Positions 2,693 through 56,705 of a stretch of 64,000 nucleotides of DNA are shown in pieces. The notes under the pieces were generated by a model. It searched no databases. It was not told the origin of the DNA and worked only from the letters and a program-made list of their open reading frames with translations. Positions within the stretch are counted from its first letter, which is position 1; each line of letters begins with the position of its first letter. Position numbers and translations under genes: made by a program. The DNA is from Steroidobacteraceae bacterium (GTDB lineage Bacteria; Pseudomonadota; Gammaproteobacteria; Steroidobacterales; Steroidobacteraceae): the NCBI GenBank assembly GCA_049841155.1, contig JASGHI010000004.1, forward strand, positions 433,477 through 497,476, given 5' to 3'.

Positions 2693-2766
2693 TGGGGGAT
2701 CGTCCAGCGGTAGGACTACGGACTCTGACTCCGTCAACCTAGGTTCGAATCCTAGTCCCCCAGCCA
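2693..2766 (+). tRNA. tRNA-Gln (anticodon CUG), encoded CCA end
   Basis: 74 nt. Acceptor stem UGGGGGA/UCCCCCA, anticodon stem ACGGA/UCCGU with loop CU-CUG-AC, T-arm GGTTCGAATCC, 3' GCCA. Close to the E. coli tRNA-Gln architecture. Confidence 0.92.
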
Positions 2767-10373: not shown

Positions 10374-10955
10374 ATGTCTGACATTAGAGTGGAAGTTCTA
10401 AGCAGGCGCAGCCTTATGGCGGGCGGCACGTCGGTGATCGCGGGGTTGTTGCTGGATGGAGCGTGGCTGTCGCAGGCGCATGCGGCCGGTGCGCGTTACC
10501 AGTCCGATCCGCGTCATGCCTTCGCCGACCGGATCAGCGATTTGTTGATACCCACCACGGATACGCCTGGTGCGTCCGCCGCGGGTGTTGCGGGTTTCGT
10601 GTTGCTGGCGCTGGACAGCGGCGTGAGCGGCCTGAAGCCGGCGTTGCTGGATGCGGTGCAAGCTGAGCTGGATGCGTCCGCTGGCGGAAAGTTCGTGGGT
10701 CGGCCTCGCAATCGCCAGGCCGGGTTGCTTGCGGAGCTGGACCGCAAGGCGTTTGCGGCGGCAAGTCCGGCGGAAAATTCGGCGGAATTTGCATGGCGGC
10801 GGATCAAGTCAGCGATTGTTGCCGGCTACTACACCAGCGAGATCGGTGGGTCGAAAGAGCTGATCTACGAGCCGGTGCCCGGCAAATTCGAGAACATCGC
10901 GCTGACGGCTGAATACCGTGCTCGTTCCAATGACGGTCAGGGAGGGGCTATCTAA
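10374..10955 (+). CDS. Tat-signal small subunit, gluconate 2-dehydrogenase subunit-3 family
   Basis: 193 aa with a twin-arginine motif (SRRSLMAGG). Its stop overlaps the start of the GMC flavoprotein gene (ATCTAATG), the typical pairing for this family. Confidence 0.7.
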   Translation: MSDIRVEVLSRRSLMAGGTSVIAGLLLDGAWLSQAHAAGARYQSDPRHAFADRISDLLIPTTDTPGASAAGVAGFVLLALDSGVSGLKPALLDAVQAELDASAGGKFVGRPRNRQAGLLAELDRKAFAAASPAENSAEFAWRRIKSAIVAGYYTSEIGGSKELIYEPVPGKFENIALTAEYRARSNDGQGGAI

Positions 10956-12631
10956 TGCCAGACTTCGACGCCATCGTCGCCGGCTCCGGTATCACCGGCG
11001 GGTGGGCGGCCAAGGAACTTACCGAGCGCGGCCTGAAAGTGCTGATGATCGAGCGTGGCCCGAATCTCGAGCATCGTACCGACTACAAGACCGAGTTTAC
11101 GCCTCCGTGGGAGCTGGACTTCCGCGGCTACACCGATCCCAAGTTGCTGGCGGGTTCGAAGCGCGTGCAGAAGTACTCGCGCATGAACGAGTGGGTCAAG
11201 GACATGTTCGTCGATGACGACATCGAGACCTACCAGACGCCCCCCGAGAGCAACTTCCGCTGGATGCGCGGCTACCACCTCGGGGGTCGTTCCGTGATGT
11301 GGGGCCGGCACAGTTATCGCATGAGCGAGGCCCATTTCGCGGCCAATGCCAATGACGGCCATGGCGTGGATTGGCCCGTGCGGTATCGGGACGTCGCGCC
11401 CTGGTACGACCATGTCGAGCAGTTTATTGGAGTCAACGGGACCGTCGATGGCATTGCCAGCTTGCCGGACGGCAAATATCAGCCCTCGATGGGCTTCAAT
11501 GCCGGCGAGCAACGGCTGGCGGATCTCATCAGGGCCAAGTATCCGGACCGTCGCCTGCTGCCGGGCCGCACAGCGAACCTCACCAAAGCGATCGGTGATC
11601 GTTCTCCATGCCAATATCGCAACCAGTGCGGGCGCGGATGCTCGTACGGGGCGTATTTCAGCACGCAAAGCTCCACCTTGCCCGCGGCGCGGGCCACGGG
11701 GCTGCTCACATTGCTGACTGACACGATCGTCGAAACGGTTGATCATGATCCGAAGACCAGGCGTGCCACCGGCGTAAGGTTGCGCAACGTCAATACGGGC
11801 GAGCGTTCCACGGCCACAGCGAAAATCATTTTTCTCTGCGCCGGGTCGGTCAACAGCGTGGCGATACTGTTGCGCTCGGTATCCGAGACGATGCCGGGTG
11901 GTCTGGGCAACTCGGGCGGTGTGTTGGGCAAATACTTCATGGACCATGCTTTCGGCCCCAACGTAACCTCGACCATACCGGGCCTCGGTGATCGCATGTA
12001 CCTCGGGCGCAAGCCCAACGGGCTTACCATGCCGCGTTTCGTCAACATGTCCGGGCAGGAGACGGATTTCCTGCGCGGCTATGCCTTTCAGGGAGGAGGC
12101 CAGCGGCAGGGATGGAGCCGCGGCGGCAATCTTCCCGGCATAGGTAGTGATTTCAAGCACCAGTTGCGGCAACCGGGTGAGTGGATGATATCGCTGGAGC
12201 CCTCCATCGAGTGTCTGCCCCGCAAGGAGAACGCGATCACTGTCGATTTCCGCAAACCGGACAAGCACGGCCTGCCCACAATTCGTATCGATCTGCGCTG
12301 GAGCGACAATGAGCAGAAAGCCGCCGTGCATGCGGTGAACGAGGCAAAGGCGATACTGTCGTTGCTCGGCGGCCAGATAACCAATGCCCGCGCGGAGATT
12401 GCGCCGCCGGGCACGGCGATCCACGAGATGGGCGGGGCATGCATGGGTCGGGATCCGCGTACCTCGGTGACCAATGCCTACAACCAGGTGCATGACGCTC
12501 TGAATGTATTCGTCACCGACGGCGCCTGCATGTCGTCGACAGGGGACCGCAATCCTTCGCTGACCTACATGGCGTTGACGGCCCGTGCCGCAGCCGCGGC
12601 GGTGGATATGTTCAAGCAGGGCACTCTGTGA
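10955..12631 (+). CDS. GMC-family FAD dehydrogenase large subunit (gluconate 2-dehydrogenase flavoprotein-like)
   Basis: 558 aa with N-terminal AIVAGSGITGGWAAKEL FAD motif and the C-terminal GMC block (IHEMGGACMG...FVTDGA). No signal peptide of its own, so probably co-exported with the Tat subunit. Confidence 0.8.
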   Translation: MPDFDAIVAGSGITGGWAAKELTERGLKVLMIERGPNLEHRTDYKTEFTPPWELDFRGYTDPKLLAGSKRVQKYSRMNEWVKDMFVDDDIETYQTPPESNFRWMRGYHLGGRSVMWGRHSYRMSEAHFAANANDGHGVDWPVRYRDVAPWYDHVEQFIGVNGTVDGIASLPDGKYQPSMGFNAGEQRLADLIRAKYPDRRLLPGRTANLTKAIGDRSPCQYRNQCGRGCSYGAYFSTQSSTLPAARATGLLTLLTDTIVETVDHDPKTRRATGVRLRNVNTGERSTATAKIIFLCAGSVNSVAILLRSVSETMPGGLGNSGGVLGKYFMDHAFGPNVTSTIPGLGDRMYLGRKPNGLTMPRFVNMSGQETDFLRGYAFQGGGQRQGWSRGGNLPGIGSDFKHQLRQPGEWMISLEPSIECLPRKENAITVDFRKPDKHGLPTIRIDLRWSDNEQKAAVHAVNEAKAILSLLGGQITNARAEIAPPGTAIHEMGGACMGRDPRTSVTNAYNQVHDALNVFVTDGACMSSTGDRNPSLTYMALTARAAAAAVDMFKQGTL

Positions 12632-12747: not shown

Positions 12748-12792
12748 TTGTCGAGCCGCGGCGCACGGGACTATACTGTATCGTATGGGCAG
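12748..12792 (+). promoter_or_regulatory. Putative sigma70-type promoter of module A (TTGTCG-N18-TATACT, then ATGGGCAG)
   Basis: -35-like 12748-12753 and -10-like 12772-12777. The architecture repeats at 15756-15801 upstream of the paralogous gene. Confidence 0.45.
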
Positions 12793-12835
12793 GAAGCGTT
12801 CCGCCTGAATCCGGCAATCGCAAGAGGTATGCGCC

Positions 12836-13252
12836 ATGGTTAGCAAGAAATCGGCAGCGCTGGTGCTGGTCGCCCTGCTGGGGGCGGCGGCTGCACAGGC
12901 GCATCATTCGTTTTCGTCCACTTTCGATGCGCACAAGCCTATCGAGATCACCGGTGTGATCACCAAGGTGGAATGGATCAACCCGCACAGTTATGTCCAC
13001 ATGGACGTGAAGGACAAGAGCGGCAAGACGGTGCCGTGGGCCTTCGAGAGCCTGCCACCGGCGATGTTCAAGCGCGCCGGGCTGAAAAAAGAGATGCTGC
13101 CCATCGGCTCCACCGTGACCATCACGGGCTTCGGCGCGAAGGACGGCACACAGGCGCTGGGCTGGATCAAGAAGTTCAAGTTCGCCGATGGCCGCGAGAT
13201 CCAGGTGACGGCTGATAATCCGAGCGACGCCAATTTCGTCGACGTCCACTAG
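12836..13252 (+). CDS. Exported DUF6152-like protein, copy A (predicted mature N-terminus HHSFS)
   Basis: 138 aa. Signal peptide ends AAQA, followed by HHSFSSTFD. Shares HHSFS..FD..KP..TK.E.INPH..V..DV...VTI.GF..DG...ADG with the copy at 15849-16241. Confidence 0.75.
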   Translation: MVSKKSAALVLVALLGAAAAQAHHSFSSTFDAHKPIEITGVITKVEWINPHSYVHMDVKDKSGKTVPWAFESLPPAMFKRAGLKKEMLPIGSTVTITGFGAKDGTQALGWIKKFKFADGREIQVTADNPSDANFVDVH

Positions 13253-13280
13253 CACGCGCGCCTACCGGGGGGATTACAAC

Positions 13281-14141
13281 ATGATCATCAGACTGCGATT
13301 GGGTGAGGCGCTGGCGGCGGCGGTGTTGGCGGCGCCGCTGCTGGTTCTGGGCGCTGAAGGTGGCGGTAATGCGATGCAGGAGCGCGTTGCGCAGGAAGCA
13401 GCCAAACCGACACCGAAAACGGCATCGGGCGTGCCGGATCTGAGCGGCTACTGGAGCGTCGTGGGCGGGTTCGTCAACCCGAGCGCTATTCCGGGCACGG
13501 CGGTGACCGCCGACGGCACGACCACACGGCCGATCGCCGGCGCAGAGATCGAGGAGCACCAGGGCAACAAGGCGGGTGTCGCGCGTCGTCTGGCCGATAC
13601 CGCGGCCCGGCCGACGTACAAGCCACAGTTCGACGTCAAGGCGAAGGCCAACTGGGATCGTGCCAATTTCCTCGATCCCGGCTATAGCTGTCAGCCGCTG
13701 GGCGTGCCGCGCATCGGCGTACCGAACGAGATCGTGCAGACTCCGACGACGCTGTACTTCCTGTATCAGAACCACAACATCTACCGCGTCGTGCATCTCG
13801 ACCGCGGTCACGACCCGGATGCCGAACGCCTGCCCATGGGCGAATCGGTCGGCCGCTGGGAGGGCGATACACTGGTGGTCGACGTGACCTCGCTCCCGGA
13901 GGGGGACGAGACCTGGCTGGATGGCGATGGCTCGTACCACAGCGCGGACATGCACGTGATCGAGCGCTTCACCCGCAAGGGCAACACGCTGAACTACGCG
14001 CTGACGGTCGAGGACCCGATCTTCGCCGCGCCGTTCACGCCCAAGCCCAAGACGCTGCTGCTAGGCAACGAACACGTCGGCGAAGACTACCCATGCACGG
14101 AGAGGGACCTGCCGCACATGGTGACCAAGGAGCGTCACTGA
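13281..14141 (+). CDS. Secreted protein of unknown function, 'WEGDTLV' family, paralogue 1
   Basis: 286 aa with an N-terminal signal. Motifs PDLSGYW, C..LGVPR, YRVV, GRWEGDTLVVDV, WLD..G..H...MHVIERFT and YPCTE are shared with 16318-17160 and 17168-18427. Confidence 0.7.
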   Translation: MIIRLRLGEALAAAVLAAPLLVLGAEGGGNAMQERVAQEAAKPTPKTASGVPDLSGYWSVVGGFVNPSAIPGTAVTADGTTTRPIAGAEIEEHQGNKAGVARRLADTAARPTYKPQFDVKAKANWDRANFLDPGYSCQPLGVPRIGVPNEIVQTPTTLYFLYQNHNIYRVVHLDRGHDPDAERLPMGESVGRWEGDTLVVDVTSLPEGDETWLDGDGSYHSADMHVIERFTRKGNTLNYALTVEDPIFAAPFTPKPKTLLLGNEHVGEDYPCTERDLPHMVTKERH

Positions 14142-14293
14142 GCCAGATGCGCGGTTGAGGGACGCGCGGCAGCGGCGCCTATTGTCCGCATGACCCGTGG
14201 CGCAGCAGGCATGAAGCGTCACGGGTCCATCGCTGCCGGCATCTGCGGACCCGTCCAGGAATTGAATACAAGAGCCGTCTTGGGGGAGCCGTA

Positions 14294-14800
14294 GTGCTGG
14301 AACAACTCTCGAACCTGCCTTTGTCCGTGTGGATCCGTGAGTCCACGGACATCTATGCCTTCACGCTGATCCTGACGCTCCATGCCATCGGGCTGGCAAC
14401 GGTGGTGGGTATCAGCACGGTGGTCGGACTGCGGCTGCTGGGAGTGGGCCCCGGCATTCCGCTGGTGCTCCTGAAGCGCTTCTTCCGCGTGCTGTACGTC
14501 GGCTTCTGGATCAATGCGGTTTCGGGGCTGATGCTGTTCATCGCCGAGCCGGTGAAGATGGTGGAGATGCCGGCCTTCTGGGCCAAGATGTTCTTCATCG
14601 CCTGCGGCCTGGTGGTGGTGCGCCTGCTCACGGTGCGCGTATTCAGTGACGCGCAGATGATGGCCAGCAACATTCCGAACCAGCAGGCGCGCAGGCTCGC
14701 GTGGGCGTTGCTGGGGTGCTGGTACATGGCGCTGATCGTCGGACGGCTCACGGGCTATCCGGAGATGGTCGGTCAGATGCTCAGGGCCATCGGCCTGTAA
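14294..14800 (+). CDS. 4-TM integral membrane protein, unknown function (paralogue of the next gene)
   Basis: 168 aa, GTG start preceded by GGGGGAG. Four hydrophobic helices. The TM1 motif LHAIGLATVVG....LRLLG is shared with the next ORF. Confidence 0.65.
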   Translation: MLEQLSNLPLSVWIRESTDIYAFTLILTLHAIGLATVVGISTVVGLRLLGVGPGIPLVLLKRFFRVLYVGFWINAVSGLMLFIAEPVKMVEMPAFWAKMFFIACGLVVVRLLTVRVFSDAQMMASNIPNQQARRLAWALLGCWYMALIVGRLTGYPEMVGQMLRAIGL

Positions 14801-14815
14801 GCGGGGAGGGAGCGG

Positions 14816-15334
14816 ATGGACTGGTTCAGACACATTCTCGATATCCACGCGATGCAGGCCTATGTGAACGGTCACGCCTGGGTGTGGTCGGTATGCGAGA
14901 TGATCCACTACGTGGGCATGTCGCTGATCGTCGGCCTGATCGGGCTGCTGGATCTGCGCATCCTCGGCTTCTGCAAGAGTCTGCCGATCGGCGCGCTCAA
15001 GCCTTTCGTGCCCATCGCCATTGCCGGCTTCGTCGCCAACCTGATCACGGGCTTCATATTCGTCTCCGGCAATCCGGTGGGCGGGCCGGGCGCCTACCTC
15101 GACAACCTGTCATTCCAGTGCAAGCTGGTGGTGCTGGGGATCGCGTTCATCAACCTGGTCATCTTCCGGCTCACGGGGCTCGAGCACGAGGTTTACGCCA
15201 CACCAGCCAACGGCGATGCACCGGGCAGCGCTAAAGTGATCGCGGTCGTCTCCCTCCTCAGCTGGGCGTTCATCATCTTCTTCGGCCGCATGCTGATGTA
15301 CAACGACACGCTGCTGCTGTTCCTGGGACTTTGA
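14816..15334 (+). CDS. 4-TM integral membrane protein, unknown function (paralogue of the previous gene)
   Basis: 172 aa with RBS GGGAGGGAG. TM1 IHYVGMSLIVG....LRILG, GF..N...G in TM2, F..K in TM3 and GR...Y in TM4 all align with the previous ORF. Confidence 0.65.
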   Translation: MDWFRHILDIHAMQAYVNGHAWVWSVCEMIHYVGMSLIVGLIGLLDLRILGFCKSLPIGALKPFVPIAIAGFVANLITGFIFVSGNPVGGPGAYLDNLSFQCKLVVLGIAFINLVIFRLTGLEHEVYATPANGDAPGSAKVIAVVSLLSWAFIIFFGRMLMYNDTLLLFLGL

Positions 15335-15347
15335 TCCGGCACCGCCT

Positions 15348-15366
15348 GCGCCGCCGGTCGCGGCGC
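15348..15366. terminator. Short GC hairpin between the convergent membrane-protein gene and the HiPIP gene
   Basis: GCGCCGC-cggtc-GCGGCGC (7-bp stem) lies in the 45-nt convergent spacer. Confidence 0.3.
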
Positions 15367-15379
15367 GGGTGGCGTTACG

Positions 15380-15703
15380 CTAGCGGCTGCCGCGCAGCTT
15401 CCAGAGCTTGCACCATCCGGCGGCGTTCACCAGGCGGCCGGGCACAATGGAGCAGCCGCGCTGGCGTCCCGAGCCGAATTCGATGAACGAACAGGTTGTG
15501 CAGCTCTGTCCGCGTTTGTAGGTGGGATGGGTGCCCACGTTCACCGTCTTGGCGTCCGCGACATAATCAATGGTCCTGGCCGCCGGTTCTTTCTCGTCCA
15601 GCGGCGTACGTGCTGCCGCTGCGGCCAGCGCCCAGCGCGGGGCGCTGATCGTCGCGGCCAGCGCGAGTGCGCGCAGCAGTCTGCGTCGTGCGATGAAGCT
15701 CAT
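15380..15703 (-). CDS. High-potential iron-sulfur protein (HiPIP), Tat-exported
   Basis: 107 aa. Twin-arginine signal (ARRRLLRALALAA). Cys pattern C-x2-C-x12-C-x13-C with the last Cys preceded by Trp (GWC), diagnostic of a HiPIP [4Fe-4S] site. Confidence 0.85.
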   Translation of the reverse strand: MSFIARRRLLRALALAATISAPRWALAAAAARTPLDEKEPAARTIDYVADAKTVNVGTHPTYKRGQSCTTCSFIEFGSGRQRGCSIVPGRLVNAAGWCKLWKLRGSR

Positions 15704-15755
15704 GTGCGGGATTGTAGCAATCCGCGCGGCGTGCAGGCCGCGCGTACGTGAATGG

Positions 15756-15801
15756 TTGTGGCCGTGCCGCTCAATACGTTATAGTATGGAAAAATGGGCA
15801 G
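15756..15801 (+). promoter_or_regulatory. Putative sigma70-type promoter of module B (TTGTGG-N18-TATAGT, then ATGGGCAG)
   Basis: -35-like 15756-15761 and -10-like 15780-15785. The ATGGGCAG motif at 15794-15801 matches 12785-12792, and the downstream leader shares GCG.TT.CGCC and AATCG blocks with module A. Confidence 0.45.
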
Positions 15802-15848
15802 CGCGATTTTCGCCGCTGCATCGTGGGGGAATCGTCATCGGAGGGTTT

Positions 15849-16241
15849 ATGAGCACTTTGCGTCGTGTATGGATCGCGGGCGCCGTGCTGCAGCTGGGAG
15901 TCATGGCTGCAGCGCAGGCGCATCATTCGTTTTCGGCGGTGTTCGATGGCACCAAGCCCGTTACCCTCGACGGCACCGTCACCAAGTTCGAGTTCATCAA
16001 TCCGCACGGATGGGTGACATTGGACGTGCCTGGCGCTGCCGGTACACCGGCGGCCACGTGGCGTGTCGAGGTGGCCAACCCGAACGCGCTGATCCGCCTC
16101 GGCTGGCGCAAGGACAGCCTCAAGCCGGGCGACAAGGTCACCATTCAGGGCTTCCGCTCGCACGATGGTTCGAACACCGCCTTCGGCAAGGAGTTCAAGC
16201 TGGCGGACGGCAAGACCGTGCTGAACAGCGTGGCTCCGTAG
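15849..16241 (+). CDS. Exported DUF6152-like protein, copy B (predicted mature N-terminus HHSFS)
   Basis: 130 aa, RBS GGAGGG. Signal peptide ...MAAAQA followed by HHSFSAVFD. The 21-nt stretch caggcgcatcattcgttttcg is identical to copy A. Confidence 0.75.
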   Translation: MSTLRRVWIAGAVLQLGVMAAAQAHHSFSAVFDGTKPVTLDGTVTKFEFINPHGWVTLDVPGAAGTPAATWRVEVANPNALIRLGWRKDSLKPGDKVTIQGFRSHDGSNTAFGKEFKLADGKTVLNSVAP

Positions 16242-16317
16242 ACGCACAACCCACAAGAGGCAGTACCCGATGAGGCAGCAGACTGTCCGCCCGGATGGCG
16301 GCGCAAGGGGAGGGAGC

Positions 16318-17160
16318 ATGCGCAGCATGCATCTGATTGGCATTTGCGCCGCGTTGGCGCTCGGTGCGGCCGCGAGCGTCGCGTCGGCCTATTCGCCGGG
16401 CAAGCTTTACGACGGCAAGACGCCGGATCTGCGCGGCATCTGGCAGGCACGCGGCACGGCGTACGTGAACATCGAAGGCCACAAGGGCGGCAAGGGCGTG
16501 GCCCCGTCGCGGAGCATCATCGTCGATCCCGCGGACGGCAAGATTCCGTACAAGCCGGAGGCGCTGGCCAAGCGCGACGAGAACTTCAGGAATCGCAACG
16601 AGGCCGACCCATCGCTGCGCTGCAGCCAGGCGGGCGTGCCGCGCATCACCTATCTGCCGACGCCGTTCCAGATCGTGCAATCGCCGGGGTACACGGCCTT
16701 CGTGTATCAGGACAACCACTCCTACCGCATCATCTATCCGAGCACCAAGCCGCACCTCACCGGCGTCGACTGGTGGATGGGCGACTCGCGCGGCCACTGG
16801 GAGGGCGACACGCTCGTGGTCGATGTCACGACGCAGAACGACCTGACGTGGCTGGACGCCTCCGGCAACCCTCACAGCAGTGACATCCACGTGGTCGAGC
16901 GCTACACGCCGACAGGCCCCGACACGATGACCTATGAGGCGCGCATCGAGGATCCGAACACCTACACCAGGCCCTGGACGCTGCGCACGACGCTCTACCG
17001 CAACACGGCCAAAGGCGCGCGCATCATCGAAGACGAGTGCCTGGAGGACATCCATGGCGTGTTCCGGCACATCTCGCCGACCGATCCGGCCAACCTCCTC
17101 CGCAACAACTATCGGCGCTGGTTGCTGCCCGCCGATGGCGCAGCGCCGGCCAACAAGTGA
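16318..17160 (+). CDS. Secreted protein of unknown function, 'WEGDTLV' family, paralogue 2
   Basis: 280 aa from the ATG at 16318 (RBS GGGAGGGAG), with a signal peptide ...ASVASA. Motifs PDLRGIW, C..AGVPR, YRII, GHWEGDTLVVDV, WLD..G..H...IHVVERYT and DECLE. Confidence 0.7.
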   Translation: MRSMHLIGICAALALGAAASVASAYSPGKLYDGKTPDLRGIWQARGTAYVNIEGHKGGKGVAPSRSIIVDPADGKIPYKPEALAKRDENFRNRNEADPSLRCSQAGVPRITYLPTPFQIVQSPGYTAFVYQDNHSYRIIYPSTKPHLTGVDWWMGDSRGHWEGDTLVVDVTTQNDLTWLDASGNPHSSDIHVVERYTPTGPDTMTYEARIEDPNTYTRPWTLRTTLYRNTAKGARIIEDECLEDIHGVFRHISPTDPANLLRNNYRRWLLPADGAAPANK

Positions 17161-17167
17161 GCCACCC

Positions 17168-18427
17168 ATGAATACTCGCGAACAGTTCATGCAGAGGATG
17201 ACGCTGATGGCGGCCGTCGCGACCATCGCGCTGGCCGGCCTGGTGCAGAGCGCAGCGGCGCAAGTGGCGGTCCAGGGTACGGTAACGGCGGCGCCGGAGG
17301 AGGCGGCTGCTCTGCCCATTCCGCGTCTGCCGGACGGCAAGCCGGATTTCCAGGGCACCTGGTACAAGTCGCGCGGCTATCAGCCCAATGGCACGGTCGT
17401 CGTCGCGCCCGGCGGCGGCCGCGCCGCCGCCGAGCCGGGTAATACGGCTGGCAATCAGCCTCAGGGTGGTGCCGGTGCGGCGGCCGGCGGTGGTGGTGCC
17501 GCCGGCACGGGGCCCAATCCGTTCGGCCTCTCGTCGGCCGAGAACGCCGAAGTGTTCCTGCTGCACGGGGTGAAGATCCCGTACCGGCCCGAGGCCATGC
17601 AGGAGAAGCGCTGGCGCGCCGTCAACCAGTATCTCGACGGCGAGCCGCGCTGCCACCTCGCCGGCGTGCCGCGCTCGGCCGAGCAGCCGCCGTATCCGCA
17701 CATGATCATCCAGGACGACAAGACCGTCACCATCCTGTACGAATACGTGCACGAGCCGCGCATCATTCCGATTACCAGCGAGCCGCACCCGAAGAATTAC
17801 CGCGCGTGGGACGGCGATTCGCGGGCCCACTGGGAGGGCGATACGCTGGTCATCGACGTCAGCAACTTCAACGGCCGCAGCTGGCTCGACATGACCGGCA
17901 ACTTCGTCGATGAAAACCTGCACGTGGTCGAGCGCTACACGATGACGAGCGGCAACACCTATCTGTACGAAGCGATCCTGACCGATCCGACCGTTTTCAC
18001 TGAGCCGTTGAAGATCAGTTTCGAGTTGGTGCGCCAGAAGGACGAGGACCAGATCATCGAATACAGCTGCCTCGAGGGGGAGAGTGACCGCCAGCATTAC
18101 ACCGCGCAGACCGGCGGCGTGAAGGCCGACGCGTTCCGGGATACCGCCGTCAGCACCGTAGTGCATGCCGGCGAAGCGACGAGTGTGCATGGCTGCCTGC
18201 GCGGCGATCTGGTCGATGGTGCGGTGAAGTACTCGCTGGAACTGCGCCCGAAGGGCAAGGTGCCGGTGAGCCTTGCCGCTGGCGCACAGCAGGGTCTGCG
18301 TGAACTGGTCGATCGCGACGTGTGGCTGAACGGCTCGTGGAAGGCACAGCCCGGCAAATCACCGTTCGAGGTGACCAGCGCGCGGGCTCAAGCCGAAGGC
18401 TGCGCCTGGGACGGCAAGAGTCCGTGA
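17168..18427 (+). CDS. Secreted protein of unknown function, 'WEGDTLV' family, paralogue 3 (Gly/Ala-rich insert and extra C-terminal domain)
   Basis: 419 aa. Signal ...QSAAAQ. Motifs PDFQGTW, C.LAGVPR, PRII, AHWEGDTLVIDV, WLD..G......LHVVERYT and YSCLE. Roughly 100 extra C-terminal residues. Confidence 0.7.
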   Translation: MNTREQFMQRMTLMAAVATIALAGLVQSAAAQVAVQGTVTAAPEEAAALPIPRLPDGKPDFQGTWYKSRGYQPNGTVVVAPGGGRAAAEPGNTAGNQPQGGAGAAAGGGGAAGTGPNPFGLSSAENAEVFLLHGVKIPYRPEAMQEKRWRAVNQYLDGEPRCHLAGVPRSAEQPPYPHMIIQDDKTVTILYEYVHEPRIIPITSEPHPKNYRAWDGDSRAHWEGDTLVIDVSNFNGRSWLDMTGNFVDENLHVVERYTMTSGNTYLYEAILTDPTVFTEPLKISFELVRQKDEDQIIEYSCLEGESDRQHYTAQTGGVKADAFRDTAVSTVVHAGEATSVHGCLRGDLVDGAVKYSLELRPKGKVPVSLAAGAQQGLRELVDRDVWLNGSWKAQPGKSPFEVTSARAQAEGCAWDGKSP

Positions 18428-19824
18428 GCAGCTACCAGCCGCCGCAGAGCGCCGGCGGGCCGCCGACGGGCCCGGCAGCGCAGGCTGCCGGGACGGCGCG
18501 CGGCGGCTGGTATCTGGTGAGTGTGCTGCTGGTCTGCTACACGTTCTCGTTCATCGACCGGCAGATCCTCAGCCTGCTGGTCGGGCCCATCAAGCGTGAC
18601 CTTGCGATCAGCGACACGATGATGGGCCTGCTGCAGGGTTTTGCCTTCGCGCTGTTCTACACGCTGATGAGCATCCCGCTGGGGCGCATCGGCGACATCG
18701 GCAACCGGCGCAAGCTCATCGCCGCCGGTGTGCTCGTCTGGAGTCTGATGACCTCGGCCTGCGCGCTGGCGCGCAGCTACACGTCGCTGTTCCTGACGCG
18801 CATCGGCGTCGGCATCGGCGAGGCGGCGCTGTCGCCCGCCGCATTCTCGATGATCACCGACACCTTCCCGCGCGAGCGGCTGTCGGGCGCGCTCAGCGTG
18901 TACTCGATGGGCATCTTCATCGGCTCGGGGCTGGCGCTGATGGTCGGCGGCATCATCGTGCAGGCCACCAGCACCATGTCGGCGATCACACTGCCGATCT
19001 TCGGCAGCATGTCCGCGTGGCGCCTGACCTTCCTGGTCGTGGGCCTGCCCGGCCTTCTGATCGCGCTGTGGGTGCTCACGCTGCGCGAGCCGGCGCGCCG
19101 CGGCCTGCTGCGGCGTGCAGCGAGCGAGAGCCGTCACCTGTCGATCGGCGAGACCTTCGCGCAGATCCGCATGCGCTGGGGTTCGTTCATCGGCCTGTCG
19201 CTGGGCATGATCTTCCAGTCGATGGTGGTGTTCGCGTTCATGGCGTGGACGCCGGCATTCTTTCAGCGCATCCATCACTGGAGTCCCAGGCAGACGGGCC
19301 AGGTGCTGGGCCTGCTGATACTGGTCTTCGGCTGCCTCGGCATGTACGTCGGCGGTCGGCTGTCGGACCGGTGGAAGCGCGCCGGCCAGCACGATGCGGC
19401 ACTGAAGGTCACCGTCATCAGCGCGCTCGGCTGCGGCCTGTTCTTCGTGCCGGCGTACTTGATCGACGATCCGGTGTGGACGGTGGTGCTGCTGGCGCCG
19501 GCGCTGTTCTTCGAAGGCATGCCGGTGGGCAGCGCCTTCGCTGCGGTGCAGCTCATCTTTCCGAACCAGGTGCGCGCCTCGGCCTCAGCGTTGTTCATGT
19601 TCATGCTGAACCTGGGCGGCCAGACGCTGGGACCGCTGCTGCCGGCGCTGTTCAATGACGACGTGTTCCATTCGGAGCTGGCGCTGGGCAAGTCGCTGGC
19701 CATCACCATGGCCATCGCTTCGCTCGGCATGCTGGTCATCATGTCGCTGACGCGCGCGCCGTATCGCCGGCACTACGAGGAGCTGCTGCCGCAACTCTCC
19801 GACGTGCCGCCCGCCGGCCACTGA
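18424..19824 (+). CDS. MFS transporter
   Basis: About 466 aa from the GTG at 18424, which overlaps the upstream stop (GTGA). 12 predicted TM helices and the MFS loop motif GRIGDIGNRRK. The upstream part of the tracked ORF overlaps the previous gene and was trimmed. Confidence 0.8.
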   Translation: MSSYQPPQSAGGPPTGPAAQAAGTARGGWYLVSVLLVCYTFSFIDRQILSLLVGPIKRDLAISDTMMGLLQGFAFALFYTLMSIPLGRIGDIGNRRKLIAAGVLVWSLMTSACALARSYTSLFLTRIGVGIGEAALSPAAFSMITDTFPRERLSGALSVYSMGIFIGSGLALMVGGIIVQATSTMSAITLPIFGSMSAWRLTFLVVGLPGLLIALWVLTLREPARRGLLRRAASESRHLSIGETFAQIRMRWGSFIGLSLGMIFQSMVVFAFMAWTPAFFQRIHHWSPRQTGQVLGLLILVFGCLGMYVGGRLSDRWKRAGQHDAALKVTVISALGCGLFFVPAYLIDDPVWTVVLLAPALFFEGMPVGSAFAAVQLIFPNQVRASASALFMFMLNLGGQTLGPLLPALFNDDVFHSELALGKSLAITMAIASLGMLVIMSLTRAPYRRHYEELLPQLSDVPPAGH

Positions 19825-19850
19825 CCAGAGCCGTCCGGAGTACGACGCCG

Positions 19851-20645
19851 ATGCCACGGCTGGCCGCGAATCTGTCGACGCTGTTCCGCGAGCTGCCGTT
19901 CCGCGAGCGCTTTGGCGCCGCGGCGGCGGCCGGCTTCCGCTATGTCGAATACCAGTTCCCCTATGCAGAGGGGAGCGCTGCGGACGTGGCCGCCTGGGCG
20001 CGCGCGGCCGGTCTGCAGGTGGTGCTGCACAACCTGCCACCCGGTGATCTGGACCGTGGCGATCGCGGTCTGGCCTGCCTGGCGGGCCGCGAGGCCGAGT
20101 TCCGCGACGGGGTCGAGCGGGCCATCGATTACGCGCGCGCTGCGTGCTGCCCGCGCCTGAATTGTCTGGTCGGTGTGGCGCCGCCGGACGTGCCGCCCAC
20201 CGCCGTGCTCGCGACGCTGGTGGCCAACCTGCGGCATGCAGCCGACCGTCTGGCCGCTGCCGGCCTCACGTTGCTGATCGAGCCGCTGAACGTGCGCAGC
20301 ACGCCGGGCTATCTGCTGACGCGCAGCGCCGAGGCGCTCGAGGTGATCCGGGCGGTCGACCGGCCGAACCTGCGGCTGCAGTACGACCTGTTCCACATGC
20401 AGATCTCGGAGGGCGATCTGTTCACCACATTGCACCGGATCCTGCCCGATGTCGGTCATGTGCAGATCGCCGGTGTACCCGAGCGCGCCGAGCCGGACGT
20501 GGGCGAGGTGAACTTCCCGTGGCTGCTCGGGCAACTCGATGCGCTCGGGTACGAGGGCTGGGTGGGCTGTGAATACACGCCGCGTGCGCAGACTCTGGCC
20601 GGCCTCGGCTGGGCGCGCCGCTGGCTGCAAGGAGAGGGACGATGA
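19851..20645 (+). CDS. Hydroxypyruvate isomerase-like TIM-barrel protein (xylose isomerase-like fold)
   Basis: 264 aa. The N-terminus [24 protein letters not shown] is typical of Hyi/OtnI-type isomerases. Confidence 0.75.
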
Positions 20646-22315
20646 CGAAGCTGCGGAGCCGGGTGCTGGTGGAGGGGCGCGAGCGCACGGCGGGCCGTGC
20701 GCAGCTGCGCGCGGTCGGTCTCACCGACGCCGACCTGAAGAAGCCGTTTGTCGGCGTCGCCAACACCTGGATCGAGACCATGCCCTGCAACGTGCATCTG
20801 CGCGCGCTGGCGGCTTCGGTGAAGGAAGGCATCCGCGAGGCGGGCGGCGTGCCGTTCGAATTCAACACGGTGGCAGTCAGCGACGCGGTGACCATGGGCA
20901 CGGAGGGCATGCGCGCCTCGCTGGTGAGCCGCGAAGTCATCGCCGATTCCATCGAGCTGATGGGCAAGGCCTACATGTTCGATGCCGTGGTGGCGCTGGT
21001 GGGCTGCGACAAGACGCTGCCCGGCGCGGCCATGGGCCTTGCGCGCCTGGACGTGCCCAGCATGGTGCTGTACGGCGGCACCATCGCGCCGGGCCTGTAT
21101 CGCGGCCGCGAGATCCTGCTCGGCGACGTCATGGAGGCCGTGGGCGCCAACTCCGCCGGCAAGCTCAGCGATGCGGAACTCGAGGAGATGGAGCGCGTGG
21201 CCTGTCCCGGCGCCGGTGCCTGCGGTGGCCAGTACACGGCGAACACGATGGCCATGGCCATGGAGGTCCTTGGTCTCTCGCCCGCGGGTTTCAACAGCAT
21301 TCCGGCCGTGCATGCGGGCAAGCATCCGGCCGCGCGCCAGAGCGGTCACGTGCTGATGGAGGCCCTGCGCGCCGGGCGCTGCTTCTCCAGCCTGGTGTCG
21401 CGCACTTCGTTCCTGAACGCCATCGCCGCGGTGTGCAGCAGTGGCGGATCCACCAACGCCGTGCTGCATCTGCTGGCCATCGCTGCGGAGGCGGGCATAA
21501 CGCTGCAGCTCGATGATTTCCAGGCGATCAGCGACCGCACGCCGCTGCTGGCGGACATGGCGCCGGGCGGACGCTACTCCGCTTACGATCTCTTCAATGC
21601 GGGGGGCAGTGGCGTGCTCACCTCGCGCCTCGTCGCCGGCGGCCACGTCGACGGCAGTACGCCCACGATCACGGGGCGCACGCTGGGCGAGGAAGCCGCA
21701 GCCACCGTGGAGAGGGAGGGGCAGAAAGTGATCCTGCCGCTGAGCGAGCCGCGGCGCGCCACCGGCGGCATCGTCATCCTGCGCGGGAACCTGGCACCCG
21801 ATGGCTGCGTGGTGAAAGTGGCGGGTCACGAGGCGCAGCAGTTCCGGGGTCCGGCGCGCGTCTACGATTCCGAGGAACAGGCCATGGCGGCGGTGCTGGG
21901 CGGCCACATCCGCAAGGGTGACGCGGTGGTCGTGCGCTATGAGGGGCCGCACGGCGGCCCGGGCATGCGCGAGATGCTGGATGTGACTTCGGCCATCGTC
22001 GGGGCAGGACTCGGCGAGAGCGTCGCACTGGTGACCGACGGGCGTTTCAGCGGCGCGACACGCGGCCTGATGATCGGCCACGTGGCACCCGAGGCGTCGC
22101 GCGGCGGCCCGCTGGCGGCGCTGCGCGAGGGTGACACCATCGTCATCGACGTGGCCACAAAGAGCATCCGGGTGGAGCTGGACGCCGCGCAGCTCGCGCA
22201 GCGTCTCGCGCAGGTGCAGCCGCCGGCGCTGCCGCAGCCCGGCCGCGTGTTCGCCAAGTATCGTGCGCTGGTTGGCTCGGCCGCCACGGGCGCGATCACC
22301 GGTGCCGGGCTGTAG
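20642..22315 (+). CDS. IlvD/Edd-family dehydratase (dihydroxy-acid or sugar-acid dehydratase)
   Basis: 557 aa. Motifs CNVHL, CDKTLPG and [15 protein letters not shown] (Fe-S cluster Cys ligands). The start overlaps the upstream stop (ATGA). Confidence 0.85.
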
Positions 22316-22356
22316 TGGTCGTCACGGGTCACTGAAAGCGCACGAGGCGGAACAAG

Positions 22357-23232
22357 ATGGCGACACTGGGCTGGATCGGCGCGGGCGAGATCGGCATGCC
22401 GATGGCGCAGCGCCTGCTGCGGGCGGGCCATGTGCTGCACGTCTGGGGCCGCGATGCGCGCAGGTTGCAGCCCCTCCTCGATGCCGGCGCGTACCGCGCC
22501 GCATCGCCGGCTGCGCTGGGCCGCGACTGTGAGGCCGTGCTGCTGTGCGTCACCGACACCGAGGCCGTGCGTCAGGTGGTGTTCGGCGAGCAGGGCATCG
22601 CCACGGTGCCCGGCCACGACAAGATCCTCATCGATCATTCCACCATCCATCCACAGAGCTGCCGCGACATGGCGGCGACGCTGCGTGCGACTTGCGGCCG
22701 CGAGTGGCTCGATGCGCCCGTGTCCGGCGGCCCGGCCGGCGCCACGCAGGGCAGGCTCGCGATCTTCGTCGGCGGGGACGCTGCGGCCTTCGCGCGCACG
22801 TGTCCATGGATGCAGAGCTATGCCGAGACCATCACGCACGTCGGCGGGAGCGGAGCGGGCCAGATCCTGAAGTCCTGCAACCAGGCCGTCGTCGCCACCA
22901 CCATCGCGGCGTGGGCCGAGGCGCTCAACTACGCGAAGAACTGCGAGGTTGACGTTGCGCAGCTGGTCGCGGCGCTGGCCGGCTCGTGGTCCGACTCGCC
23001 AGTCCTGCGCCAGCTGGTGCCGCACATGCTGCGCAATGCGTATCCGCCGGGCGCGGCCGCGCTGATGCTCAAGGATCTGGATATCGTCGGCGACATGGCG
23101 AAGCAGACGCGCTCGCCGATGCTGCTTGCCTCCACGGCGGCCTCGCTGCTGCGCCTGCAGATCGCGCTGGGCGAAAACGACGCCGGGCCGCCGGGGCTCA
23201 TGCGAATCTACCGGAAAGATCCGCTGCTGTAG
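22357..23232 (+). CDS. NAD(P)-dependent beta-hydroxyacid dehydrogenase (3-hydroxyisobutyrate / tartronate-semialdehyde reductase family)
   Basis: 291 aa with N-terminal GWIGAGEIGMPMA Rossmann motif and the DAPVSGG catalytic block. Confidence 0.8.
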   Translation: MATLGWIGAGEIGMPMAQRLLRAGHVLHVWGRDARRLQPLLDAGAYRAASPAALGRDCEAVLLCVTDTEAVRQVVFGEQGIATVPGHDKILIDHSTIHPQSCRDMAATLRATCGREWLDAPVSGGPAGATQGRLAIFVGGDAAAFARTCPWMQSYAETITHVGGSGAGQILKSCNQAVVATTIAAWAEALNYAKNCEVDVAQLVAALAGSWSDSPVLRQLVPHMLRNAYPPGAAALMLKDLDIVGDMAKQTRSPMLLASTAASLLRLQIALGENDAGPPGLMRIYRKDPLL

Positions 23233-23282: not shown

Positions 23283-24263
23283 TCAGTCCAGGTGCTTCTT
23301 CTGCAGCTTCCAAGCCGGATTGCTGCACAGGCCGCAATTCGCGCCGGTGAACAGGCGGCCGGCAGCACGCTGGCCCTTGAGCTGCCAGTCGAGCCAGGCG
23401 ACACCCAGTGGCGCCCAGTTGCCGCCGTTCTCCTGCGCGAGCGGACCGCCATGGCCGGCGCCCTCGTTGTCGGCGATGACCACCGGCACCTTCTCGATCA
23501 CTTCGTAGTCTTTCTGCGCGAAGGGCGTGGCCTGATCACTGCTGCCGCCGAGCACATAGAGGATGGGGCCGTGCAGCTTCTGCAGATCGGCGCGCGTCAC
23601 GTCGGCGCCGGCGCGCGCGTAGTCCAGCGTGCCGCTGCTCCAGGCAATCACGGTCTTCACGCGTGGATCGCCGGCGATCTCGATGGCCTGCAGTCCGCCG
23701 CAGGACGCGCCCATGGCCGCGACGCGCGTGGCATCGACGCGGCCGTACCAGGGGCTGCCCTTGCGCGCGTTTTCCTTCGCGGCCCAGTCGAGCGCCTCGT
23801 AGAGCTGGGCGGTCTTCGAGAGATTCTCGGTGCCGGCGGCGCCCGGTGGCGGACCGACGCGCTGCGCGCCGCCTTCGGCGGTGGCCGCTGGCGCAGAAGC
23901 CGGCGCGGGTGCCGCGGGGCGGGCCGGGGGCAGTTCCTTCACCGGTCCGCTGGCGATGACCAGATAGCCATGTGAGGCCAGCTCGGTGAGCAGCGCGCGC
24001 GACGAGTTGCCGGCATTGGAGCACCCGCCATTGCCCCAGACGACCACCGGCAGGCGATTGCTGCGGCCGAAGGCCTTGAGTGACTGCGGCGCGTATACCG
24101 TGTGGTTGGGCAGGGCGAGATCCTCGCTCATCGCGGCCGGATAACGTCCCGTGCCCGGTGTGATGGGCGCCGTGTCGGCCGCCTGCGCCGCGACGGCGAC
24201 GCCTGCGCCCAGGATGATCGCGGCCGCGAACCGTGGCGCGCGGCAAAAAACGGTACCAGTCAT
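23283..24263 (-). CDS. Secreted alpha/beta-hydrolase (dienelactone-hydrolase/chlorophyllase-like) with a Pro/Ala-rich insertion
   Basis: 326 aa. Signal peptide ...AAQAAD, nucleophile elbow GASCGG (G-x-S-x-G), a distal ...GAGHGG His region and a C-terminal Cys pair (NCGLCS). Confidence 0.6.
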   Translation of the reverse strand: MTGTVFCRAPRFAAAIILGAGVAVAAQAADTAPITPGTGRYPAAMSEDLALPNHTVYAPQSLKAFGRSNRLPVVVWGNGGCSNAGNSSRALLTELASHGYLVIASGPVKELPPARPAAPAPASAPAATAEGGAQRVGPPPGAAGTENLSKTAQLYEALDWAAKENARKGSPWYGRVDATRVAAMGASCGGLQAIEIAGDPRVKTVIAWSSGTLDYARAGADVTRADLQKLHGPILYVLGGSSDQATPFAQKDYEVIEKVPVVIADNEGAGHGGPLAQENGGNWAPLGVAWLDWQLKGQRAAGRLFTGANCGLCSNPAWKLQKKHLD

Positions 24264-24355: not shown

Positions 24356-24416
24356 TTGTTATGAGTTATAACAACAAATTTATTATGTGTTATAATAAAT
24401 GTTGTTCTGAAACAAC
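24356..24416. promoter_or_regulatory. AT-rich block of three consecutive inverted repeats upstream of the TonB-dependent receptor (operator/promoter candidate)
   Basis: TTGTTAT-N5-ATAACAA (24356-24374), ATTTATTAT-N5-ATAATAAAT (24378-24400) and GTTGTT-N4-AACAAC (24401-24416). GTTATAA occurs as a direct repeat at 24365 and 24389. Confidence 0.5.
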
Positions 24417-56514: not shown

Positions 56515-56705
56515 GGCGCCACCCGCCTGTGCCGGTGCGGATCGTTGCTCTCGAACCGGAGCAACAGGTGGGGCAGGCTGACCGCAGGTAAGGCTTCCCG
56601 CTCGAGGCGGACATGCACAGTGCTGCCGAAAGCCGGGCCCCTTGGGTGTTTCAATTAGGGTCCGAGGTAACCCGATCCACGTGTCGAACACCGCAGGTGG
56701 CGCAA
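56515..56705 (-). ncRNA. ssrS: 6S RNA (approximate ends)
   Basis: Non-coding gap directly downstream of zapA, the conserved gammaproteobacterial position. The 5' GCCACC pairs with the 3' GGTGGC (closing stem). An internal GGGAAGCCTTACCTGCGG resembles E. coli GAGAAGCCUUAAAACUGCG. The 3'-bubble hairpin is GTTGCTC-cggttc-GAGCAAC. Confidence 0.7.

Follow-up and report, generated by a model that had tools for sequence, protein, structure and literature searches.

What is the function of the seven uncharacterized proteins that are encoded, in two similar groups, on either side of a HiPIP gene in the genome of a Steroidobacteraceae bacterium? The whole stretch of DNA that was analyzed (referred to as the window) has a length of 64,000 nucleotides and corresponds to positions 433,477 to 497,476 of the forward strand of contig JASGHI010000004.1 (assembly GCA_049841155.1). 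The seven core proteins are two DUF6152 proteins (copies A and B), three proteins that share a WEGDTLV motif (WEG1, WEG2, and WEG3 of what is called here the WEG family), and two proteins with four transmembrane segments (4-TM a and 4-TM b). Module A includes DUF6152-A, WEG1, and the 4-TM pair, and module B includes DUF6152-B, WEG2, and WEG3. In the first-pass annotation, the two modules were chained to a GMC dehydrogenase upstream and to an operon of an MFS transporter and a dehydratase downstream. All the genes of that annotation are found at the same coordinates in the open reading frame (ORF) listing (Table 1), with a small revision of two starts: WEG2 begins at 16318 in the NCBI call, and WEG3 most likely begins at 17168. 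WEG2, DUF6152-B, and 4-TM b are each 100% identical to an NCBI protein from an 830-kb contig of this organism. It is also confirmed that the seven core proteins, which all appear to be exported or membrane embedded, belong to no characterized family, as there is no NCBIfam match, no sequence relative in the PDB, and no study of them was found.

When approximately 170 related loci are compared, the region falls into four units, and it is a mosaic of these rather than a single pathway. Unit 1 is a tight module of two families, DUF6152 and WEG. Unit 2, which is facultative, comprises two DUF6644/DUF2214-like 4-TM proteins that are encoded as a pair, and the gene of a small electron carrier lies beside or near them. 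Unit 3, the GMC flavoprotein dehydrogenase, and unit 4, the MFS/acid-sugar operon, are not conserved partners of the modules.

The DUF6152–WEG module

The WEG loci of the comparison are the best 80 of 557 relatives obtained in a scan of one genome per species, and they are mostly from Acidobacteriota (Bryobacterales, Vicinamibacterales, and Terriglobia), together with Gamma- and Alphaproteobacteria, Methylobacter, and Myxococcales. When these loci are searched with family hidden Markov models (HMMs), DUF6152 is found within 10 kb in 60 of them (75%). In the reverse direction, considering those metagenome loci that were selected by DUF6152 and extend for at least 1.2 kb to either side, a WEG gene is present in 26 of 27 loci and is the direct neighbor on the same strand in 21. 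The counts in both directions identify DUF6152 and WEG as a tight two-family module. With D for DUF6152 and W for WEG, the commonest multigene orders are D-W-W (26), W-W (22), and W-W-D (11), and single-gene runs also occur (single W, 35; single D, 13). The module spans Acidobacteriota, Gamma- and Alphaproteobacteria, Myxococcota, and Planctomycetota-like genomes, and it is strongly multiplied in soil Acidobacteriota. Genomes and single loci can carry many paralogous copies, with up to seven WEG genes in 20 kb. In the 64-kb window, the HMM scan finds no copies of the three unknown families other than those listed in Table 1.

The assignment of both copies as DUF6152-like, made in the first-pass annotation, is confirmed by scores far over the gathering cut-off of PF19649 (27 bits), and the two copies are paralogous (46% identity, E = 2e-28). 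DUF6152 is small, at about 105 residues. In DUF6152-A, the predicted mature N terminus is HHSF, following an AQA cleavage site, as deduced from the −3/−1 rule. In an alignment of 40 members, the HHSF sequence after a signal-peptidase site of the A-x-A type is invariant, as are the NPH motif, W47, E50, and R59. When 120 homologs are considered, the HH and NPH motifs are each present in all of them, a median of 24 residues precedes the HH motif, and the residue directly before it is Ala or Gly in 119 sequences (Ala in 118) and Thr in the remaining one. The HH motif is retained in all full-length divergent copies despite changes in the next residues (HHSV, HHSI, HHG, and HHL). A histidine is therefore the predicted first residue of the mature protein, as is required of histidine-brace proteins; the second histidine (H2) and H29 are also invariant.

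The AlphaFold2 model of DUF6152-B, with a predicted local distance difference test (pLDDT) score of 85, has the five strands of an OB barrel, the third and fourth being connected by a helix, and is not a β-sandwich of the immunoglobulin-like or cupredoxin-like type. The pLDDT of residues 1 to 3 is below 50. The OB-fold assignment of DUF6152-A is carried over from this model. The Foldseek matches of the model are generic OB domains (SSB, PriB, and the anticodon-binding domain of LysRS), and a profile search of the DUF6152 alignment against the PDB sequences gives chance-level matches only. Nucleic-acid binding was considered and rejected, because the protein is exported and the matches with SSB and PriB reflect merely the generic likeness of OB-folds. 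An N-terminal-histidine metal site is proposed because DUF6152 is an exported protein with a predicted OB-fold whose processed end is always His-His; as judged from the sequences, the mature His-His and the invariant NPH motif together form a candidate site of this kind. To this extent, the metal-dependent component that was suggested in the first-pass annotation is plausible.

In histidine-brace and other N-terminal-His proteins (lytic polysaccharide monooxygenases, CopC, and YcnI, as well as DUF4198, DUF6702, and the anglerases of PMC12537917), cleavage also exposes a conserved His1, and more conserved histidines are present in the chain. Some of these systems are, like the DUF6152 module, encoded beside TonB receptors or membrane permeases (PMC12537917). 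DUF6152 is not mentioned in that 2025 survey of N-terminal-His proteins, which covers DUF4198, DUF6702, and the anglerases (PMC12537917). DUF6152 differs from the histidine-brace proteins by its predicted OB-fold, in place of a β-sandwich or cupredoxin-like fold, by having His-His at positions 1 and 2, and by its obligate partner of a barrel family (WEG), for which there is no counterpart in the N-terminal-His systems.

A comparison can be made with CusF, which is also a small periplasmic OB-fold protein. CusF is a Cu(I)/Ag(I) chaperone with a Met2-His-Trp Cu(I) site and no N-terminal His-His, and its partner is a resistance-nodulation-division (RND) pump. The metal ligands of CusF are on strands 2 and 3, where DUF6152 has the NPH motif and the W-x-x-E motif. 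No relationship between the two proteins is detected (hhalign 2%), and the Met ligands are absent from DUF6152, there being no conserved Met in its alignment.

The second family of the module is very large. For WEG2, there are at least 7,256 homologs, for which every given name is “hypothetical” and none of which has a Pfam domain. A profile search of 1.84 billion representatives finds 17,131 WEG clusters (at 50% identity) when the limit is set at E ≤ 1e-3, and 9,155 when it is tightened to E ≤ 1e-10. There is no Pfam match for WEG1 or the WEG family, even at E = 10 and with the calycin families included, and no NCBIfam match; the WEG alignment has only chance-level matches in a profile search against the PDB sequences. 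The three proteins of the window are indeed paralogs, as had been proposed, with 30 to 41% identity and 55 invariant columns, including WEGDTLV. An N-terminal hydrophobic signal is present in 114 of 115 full-length WEG proteins.

The AlphaFold2 model of WEG2 (pLDDT 77) has a first strand with an invariant G-x-W motif (G56-x-W58), an insertion of approximately 70 residues with three short helices, and nine further strands. The top 50 Foldseek matches are all with FABP, CRABP, or NanoLuc, and these are weak (E ~2e-3), with a TM-score of about 0.3 when normalized by the query and of 0.55 to 0.6 when normalized by the target, and with a root mean square deviation (rmsd) of about 6 Å. On these weak matches, WEG is tentatively modeled as a family of calycin/FABP-like barrels. 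The predicted 10-stranded barrel with the G-x-W motif on strand 1 would be a feature in common with the calycins (FABP/CRABP, the lipocalins, YceI, ZinT, and the N-terminal domain of NlpE), whereas the helical insertion after strand A, the conserved disulfide, the conserved charged core, and the low structural scores set WEG apart from them. Among the calycins, ZinT binds metal, NlpE has an OB domain in addition to its lipocalin-like domain, and the lipocalin-like YceI of Escherichia coli is encoded next to yceJ, a gene for cytochrome b561.

Cys118 and Cys257 (WEG2 numbering is used here) are conserved to 96 to 99% in both WEG subtypes described below and are predicted to form a conserved disulfide bridge. 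A set of polar residues is also conserved in both subtypes, being R125, Q137, R153, H162, D185, D196, H207, E210, R211, Y222, and D228. WEG1, whose best identity to any relative within the loci is about 33%, retains C118/C257, R153, H162, H207, E210, R211, and D228.

WEG genes usually occur as tandem pairs. The identity between the two members of a pair is about 37%, and in 121 of 136 cases the nearest neighbor in another locus occupies the same position of the tandem. The tandem genes are therefore not recent duplicates, since the first and second positions are occupied by distinct orthologous subtypes. The two subtypes are separated by this nearest-neighbor analysis and not by average-linkage clustering of the WEG proteins. 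As WEG3 is of the first-position subtype and WEG2 of the second-position subtype, the order is swapped in the window. The C terminus of WEG3 (17900–18427) is an extension of about 120 residues with two cysteines and no family match, and a similar extension is present in the protein P0362.

Several fusions of these domains are found. Ten proteins carry two WEG domains in one polypeptide. In L086, which is a metagenome or MAG (metagenome-assembled genome) contig, a single frame (14183–15352, + strand) encodes DUF6152 and, directly after it, a WEG domain that lacks a signal peptide of its own; this frame is interrupted near residue 275, after which the rest of the WEG domain is read in another frame, probably because of an assembly indel. 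In the source gene calls of this region, the genes are placed on the opposite strand. A further WEG protein (P0373) has an N-terminal monohaem cytochrome c domain (CQACH). Taken together, these fusions speak for a physical complex in which both WEG subtypes and DUF6152 take part, as well as for electron transfer to or from WEG.

The 4-TM pair, its electron carriers, and the flanking genes

The two 4-TM proteins are paralogous, in agreement with the first-pass annotation (23% identity, E = 3e-9; the hhalign probability of relatedness is 92%). The match of 4-TM a with DUF6644 is below the cut-off of 27 bits, and 4-TM b has no Pfam match. The 4-TM pair of Novosphingobium humi aligns with the family and is annotated as DUF6644, and some homologs of 4-TM b have PF09980; on these grounds, the 4-TM proteins of the window are distant members of the DUF6644/DUF2214 superfamily. 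Common features of the family are a histidine in the first transmembrane segment (TM1), a DLRLLG motif after TM1, and the patterns F..K and W..GR..Y; the 4-TM b family has 38 invariant columns, including H31. The 4-TM alignment has chance-level matches only with the PDB sequences, and nothing usable is found in NCBIfam. The charge distribution of the sequences suggests that the N terminus lies outside the cytoplasm, which would place the conserved residues on the periplasmic side. The arrangement resembles CopC–CopD and YcnI–YcnJ, in which a periplasmic N-terminal-His protein is encoded beside a polytopic membrane protein with conserved histidines. However, there is no detectable similarity between the 4-TM b family and CopD/YebZ of E. 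coli (hhalign 0.4%; no match with the Pfam family CopD, PF05425, at E = 10), the 4-TM pair accompanies only about 6% of the modules (5 of 80 WEG loci, by the family HMMs), and electron carriers are encoded alongside it.

A small redox protein is encoded beside or near the 4-TM pair in every 4-TM context examined. In the window, which belongs to a metagenome-assembled genome (MAG), this is the HiPIP, encoded convergently and with the DUF6152 and WEG genes of module A nearby. The HiPIP identity and its export by the twin-arginine translocation (Tat) pathway, as first annotated, are well supported by the PF01355 score of 63 bits against a cut-off of 22 bits, the twin-arginine leader (RRRLL), and the four cysteines in the pattern C-x2-C...C...C. 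A convergent HiPIP, 56% identical to that of the window, is also present in L086 to L088 (metagenome and MAG contigs from ENA and NCBI), of which only L086 has DUF6152/WEG genes, about 6 kb off. The redox protein is a cytochrome b561 in the metagenome contigs L089 to L091 and a cytochrome c, a few genes off, in the metagenome contig L094, in each case with DUF6152/WEG nearby. In Methylobacter (L075), the order is D-W-W-4TM-4TM-cytochrome c′ on one strand, the last gene encoding a cytochrome c′-like protein with a C-terminal CxxCH. Such a cytochrome c′-like protein is likewise found in a similar cluster with DUF6152/WEG on a plasmid of Novosphingobium humi (L098) and in Bryobacterales (L059), about 1.2 kb from the pair and with DUF6152/WEG nearby. 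Among the contexts retrieved with a 4-TM protein as the query, three of four have DUF6152 and WEG within 8 kb. The extended form, in which a 4-TM pair with its one-electron carrier is added to DUF6152 and WEG, thus genuinely exists in several phyla, but it is optional. The co-occurrence on which the first-pass annotation relied is in this way confirmed for DUF6152 and WEG, which are linked across phyla, and for the 4-TM pair with a redox protein, which are joined to the module in several unrelated lineages; it does not extend to the HiPIP and module B, since the HiPIP tracks the 4-TM pair.

The cytochrome c′-like carriers are exported proteins of 170 to 226 residues with a C-terminal CxxCH and a weak similarity to PF01322 (cytochrome c′). 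Their genes (L075, 4809–5372; L098, 5589–6095, − strand; L059, 19309–19986) directly follow the 4-TM pair in Methylobacter and Novosphingobium and lie past a WEG gene in the Bryobacterales MAG. The cytochrome c′-like protein appears to take the place of the HiPIP of the window. In a Steroidobacteraceae MAG (L095/L096, 8611–10421), the 4-TM pair is followed by a protein with a Meth_synt_2 domain and then, one gene past the pair, by a cytochrome P460, and there is no DUF6152 or WEG gene nearby; Meth_synt_2 proteins occur three times among the WEG neighbors.

The position of the HiPIP gene is clarified by L086, in which 4-TM a and 4-TM b are followed by the convergent HiPIP gene and then by the gene of an esterase that resembles PETase and dienelactone hydrolase (8848–9795, − strand). 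The same four genes are present in the window (the esterases are 41% identical), where a block of 7.4 kb (15849–23232), comprising module B, the MFS gene, and the acid-sugar genes, separates the HiPIP gene from the esterase gene. As these two genes are adjacent in L086, module B, together with the genes that follow it, behaves as a block of its own, which suggests that this block was inserted or deleted. The assignment of the HiPIP to module B was rejected, because the synteny with L086 assigns it to the 4-TM pair.

The proposal that the modules are chained with the GMC and MFS–dehydratase genes into one pathway does not survive the comparison. When the other proteins of the window are searched for in 85 WEG loci, HiPIP, GMC, IlvD, and Hyi are found in none, MFS in three, and a TonB-dependent receptor in two. 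The Tat small subunit and the GMC large subunit do lie directly upstream, as annotated, and their Pfam matches are at 10374–12631. This combination resembles the three-subunit, membrane-bound gluconate 2-dehydrogenase type, from which it differs in having no adjacent gene for a cytochrome c subunit and in being unlinked to the modules elsewhere (0 of 85 loci).

Downstream of module B, the GTGA overlap that had been noted between the last stop codon of the module and the MFS gene is present at 18424–18427; GTG 18424 is a candidate start of MFS, as the ORF also runs upstream to 18322. The ATGA overlap between the isomerase and dehydratase genes (20642–20645) follows from the ORF coordinates. The MFS protein resembles the D-galactonate transporter subfamily in the NCBIfam and Pfam searches. 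The isomerase scores 335.6 with the OtnI model (cut-off 325), and the dehydratase 747.8 with the dihydroxy-acid dehydratase subfamily (cut-off 644), whereas the dehydrogenase resembles tartronate-semialdehyde reductase and L-threonate dehydrogenase and is below both cut-offs. In the L-threonate/D-erythronate (Otn) pathway, the OtnI isomerase works with the OtnK kinase and the OtnC decarboxylase; the operon of the window carries an IlvD-family dehydratase and a β-hydroxyacid dehydrogenase. By their family matches, these look like ordinary acid-sugar catabolic genes, and they are probably cotranscribed with module B in this genome. The MFS protein is 51% identical, over its full length, to an MFS protein encoded behind a D-W-W-D-W cluster of a Terriglobia MAG, so a local link between module B and the transporter is possible but rare (3 of 85 loci).

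Neighborhoods, regulation, and gene map

The neighborhood sample consists of the 196 genes directly adjacent to DUF6152/WEG clusters, which were scanned with Pfam. The most frequent neighbors are proteins with the metallo-β-lactamase fold (10) and receptors of the CarboxypepD_reg/outer-membrane-barrel/TonB type (about 10 or more), followed by c-type cytochromes (9), VOC-family proteins with the glyoxalase/dioxygenase fold (7), SMP-30/lactonases (5), and pyrroloquinoline quinone (PQQ) dehydrogenases (4). Esterases, amidases, and GntR/FCD and LysR regulators are also found, and TetR-type regulators occur near the clusters. There is no metal-homeostasis family among the frequent neighbors. These neighbors place the module in a setting where organic compounds are taken up and catabolized in the periplasm, and this setting has a redox flavor. 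The two-component systems near the 4-TM/TonB clusters were considered as heavy-metal sensors and rejected, as they are CpxRA-like and score under all cut-offs. The metal-handling hypothesis of the first-pass annotation is weakened by the regulators nearby, which are of organic-ligand or generic types and not metal sensors.

No common regulatory motif is apparent upstream of the two modules, as the similarity of ATGGGCAG is no better than chance and the alignment of the upstream regions showed nothing. Terminator-like sites are no more frequent than in shuffled sequence, and no riboswitch or leader RNA is found by Rfam in the region of 8 to 28 kb. An imperfect palindrome with 19-nt arms that are 79% complementary is present at 14221–14254, between the WEG1 and 4-TM a genes, which are 152 bp apart. 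Two adjacent 19-bp palindromes of the 7-5-7 type, TTGTTAT-N5-ATAACAA and TTATTAT-N5-ATAATAA, are located at 24356–24398 in an unusually AT-rich stretch between the divergent genes of the PETase-like esterase and the TonB-dependent receptor (two matches, with 0.1 expected), and these are probably the operator of some regulator. Elsewhere in the window, there is a 6S RNA (SsrS) gene at 56516–56702 (− strand; Rfam, 71.9 bits). The gene of tRNA-Gln(CTG) at 2693–2766 (+ strand) abuts the gene of a class I Glu/Gln-tRNA synthetase on the opposite strand (2769–4532, − strand), just past which a second, single-subunit GMC oxidoreductase is encoded (4559–6154, − strand).

Table 1. Genes of the four units and their flanks, with window coordinates
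Feature	Position	Strand	Evidence and remarks
Carboxylesterase	8682–10244	+	ORF listing and family scans
Tat small subunit (Gluconate_2-dh3)	10374–10955	+	Pfam match; context only
GMC FAD dehydrogenase, large subunit	10955–12631	+	Pfam match; context only
DUF6152-A, exported	12836–13252	+	Pfam PF19649, 95.8 bits, E = 1.7e-27
WEG1, divergent single copy, putative barrel protein with signal peptide	13281–14141	+	WEG HMM, E = 3.6e-73
4-TM a (DUF6644-like)	14294–14800	+	Weak DUF6644 match, 18.5 bits
4-TM b (DUF2214-like)	14816–15334	+	411 homologs, some with PF09980
HiPIP, Tat-exported, convergent with the 4-TM pair	15380–15703	−	PF01355, 63 bits, E = 3.2e-17
DUF6152-B	15849–16241	+	PF19649, 106 bits, E = 1.1e-30; NCBI name “DUF6152 family protein”
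WEG2, 280 residues, second-position subtype of its nearest relatives	16318–17160	+	NCBI call; nearest-neighbor analysis
WEG3, first-position subtype, Gly-rich insert and C-terminal extension	17168–18427	+	WEG HMM, E = 7.2e-95
MFS, galactonate-transporter-like	~18424–19824	+	NCBIfam/Pfam matches; context only
2-oxo-tetronate/hydroxypyruvate isomerase	19851–20645	+	NCBIfam/Pfam matches; context only
IlvD-family dehydratase	20642–22315	+	NCBIfam/Pfam matches; context only
β-hydroxyacid dehydrogenase	22357–23232	+	NCBIfam/Pfam matches; context only
PETase-like esterase	23283–24263	−	ORF listing and family scans
TonB-dependent receptor	24520–27009	+	ORF listing and family scans

A possible function and its rivals

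It is possible that the DUF6152–WEG proteins form a periplasmic module that depends on a metal and acts on organic substrates by redox chemistry or some other processing, and this is the best reading of the data, with a probability of roughly 0.4. It builds on what is observed about the linkage and fusion of the genes, the motifs that are invariant, the folds that are predicted, and the redox proteins that recur nearby; from this we infer that a metal is bound and a complex formed, which way the electrons flow, and to which class the substrate belongs. The core would consist of two copies of a self-contained periplasmic module, in which the His-His end of DUF6152 and the NPH histidine, probably with the W-x-x-E motif of strand 3, would hold a metal ion, Cu(II) being the first guess. 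DUF6152 would dock on a heterodimer of WEG proteins or, in module A, on the only WEG protein encoded there, and the WEG barrels, lined by conserved Arg, His, Asp, Glu, and Tyr residues, would hold an organic ligand or substrate. In a minority of genomes, module A of the window included, the module would be wired to the membrane by a heterodimeric 4-TM pair, with its conserved residues, including one TM1 histidine per subunit, on the periplasmic side. The 4-TM pair and its carrier, which would be the HiPIP here and a cytochrome c′-like protein elsewhere, could then relay electrons between the redox pool of the membrane and the metal center in the periplasm. The complex would oxidize or otherwise process a small organic compound, which probably enters via a TonB-dependent receptor and would pass on to ordinary catabolism.

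Several points weigh against this proposal. With the 4-TM pair in merely 5 of 80 WEG loci and no adjacent redox protein in most of them, the electron input is either not obligatory or comes from unlinked genes. The His site includes a part of the DUF6152 model where the confidence is low (residues 1 to 3, pLDDT below 50), and the Foldseek scores behind the calycin assignment (E ~2e-3, TM 0.55 to 0.6, rmsd ~6 Å) are weak. The neighborhoods are heterogeneous, with no one partner enzyme that recurs. The N-terminal His-His could equally serve the capture of a metal instead of catalysis, and metal capture and delivery is the main rival, a carrier role and a single pathway being less likely.

In this rival explanation, which is rather unlikely, DUF6152 is a periplasmic metallochaperone or metal-capture protein similar in role to CopC, YcnI, CusF, or the N-terminal-His proteins of the anglerase type, the 4-TM pair is its acceptor or importer in the inner membrane, as CopD/YcnJ would be, the HiPIP or cytochrome c′ serves as the reductant of Cu(II) or Fe(III), and WEG binds a metallophore in the manner of a siderocalin. 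The invariant mature His-His and NPH, the precedent of N-terminal-His metal binders beside TonB receptors and permeases (PMC12537917), the TonB-dependent-receptor-like genes among the commonest neighbors, and the predicted periplasmic position of the conserved 4-TM residues all agree with it. Nevertheless, so many paralogs per genome and locus (up to seven WEG genes in 20 kb) are unusual for metal homeostasis, the frequent neighbors include no family of this kind, the two-component systems are CpxRA-like and below the heavy-metal cut-offs, the other regulators are of the GntR, LysR, and TetR types, and no homology with CusF or CopD is detectable. Metal trafficking aside, WEG might act as a noncatalytic carrier that binds nutrients of a hydrophobic or aromatic kind or, like YceI, isoprenoid quinones, and that shuttles them between outer-membrane receptors and inner-membrane transporters such as the MFS transporter or the 4-TM pair, with DUF6152 as an adaptor. 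The predicted calycin/FABP-like fold, the signal peptides of nearly all full-length WEG proteins (114 of 115), the recurrence of TonB-dependent-receptor and MFS neighbors, and, by analogy with YceI and yceJ, the cytochrome b561 gene beside the 4-TM pair in L089 would fit such carriers. We regard this role as improbable, because the conserved WEG positions are charged or polar (R125, R153, H162, H207, E210, R211, and D228), which is more in keeping with catalysis or the binding of a cofactor than with a greasy pocket, and because the cytochrome c fusion and the invariant His-His are left unexplained. The integrated pathway of the first-pass annotation, in which the GMC enzyme oxidizes a substrate in the periplasm, the seven core proteins process it, and MFS imports the product for dehydration and reduction, is still less probable. 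The tight codirectional packing with GTGA and ATGA overlaps and the 51%-identical MFS protein behind the double module of the Terriglobia MAG speak for it; the related loci do not, with GMC, IlvD, and Hyi homologs in 0 and MFS in 3 of 85. In addition, as the HiPIP gene is read from the opposite strand, the region is divided into two or more transcription units. In L086, the genes of the 4-TM pair, the HiPIP, and the esterase form an uninterrupted run from which module B and the acid-sugar genes are absent, and the downstream enzymes of the window match ordinary acid-sugar families.

Returning to the metal-dependent redox module, its most far-reaching form is that DUF6152 is the first OB-fold metalloprotein of the histidine-brace type and constitutes, with the WEG heterodimer, a new class of periplasmic oxidases or oxygenases dependent on copper or another metal and, where needed, fed with electrons by a new membrane module made up of the DUF6644/DUF2214 pair with a HiPIP or cytochrome c′-like protein; in this specific form, the proposal is a long shot. 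The literature search on DUF6152, DUF6644, DUF2214, and the accessions found no study, and for none of DUF6152, WEG, and the 4-TM pair did the sequence, profile, and fold searches give a relative whose function is known. OB and calycin folds and N-terminal-His metal sites are already known; the families and their combination are not described in the sources searched. The system may prove to be a variant of N-terminal-His metal handling.

Three of the four families have no characterized member and no solved structure, and WEG is absent from Pfam despite its approximately 17,000 clusters. An invariant His-His on an OB-fold would carry the idea of the N-terminal-histidine metalloprotein to a new fold. 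If the module is a carrier or metal system, a role would be assigned to a very large block of “hypothetical” proteins; catalytic activity would make it a new periplasmic enzyme system of bacteria that are among the most abundant in soil. Should the oxidase/oxygenase proposal be true, the WEG clusters, concentrated in soil Acidobacteriota, would represent a major unrecognized system of soil organic matter turnover.

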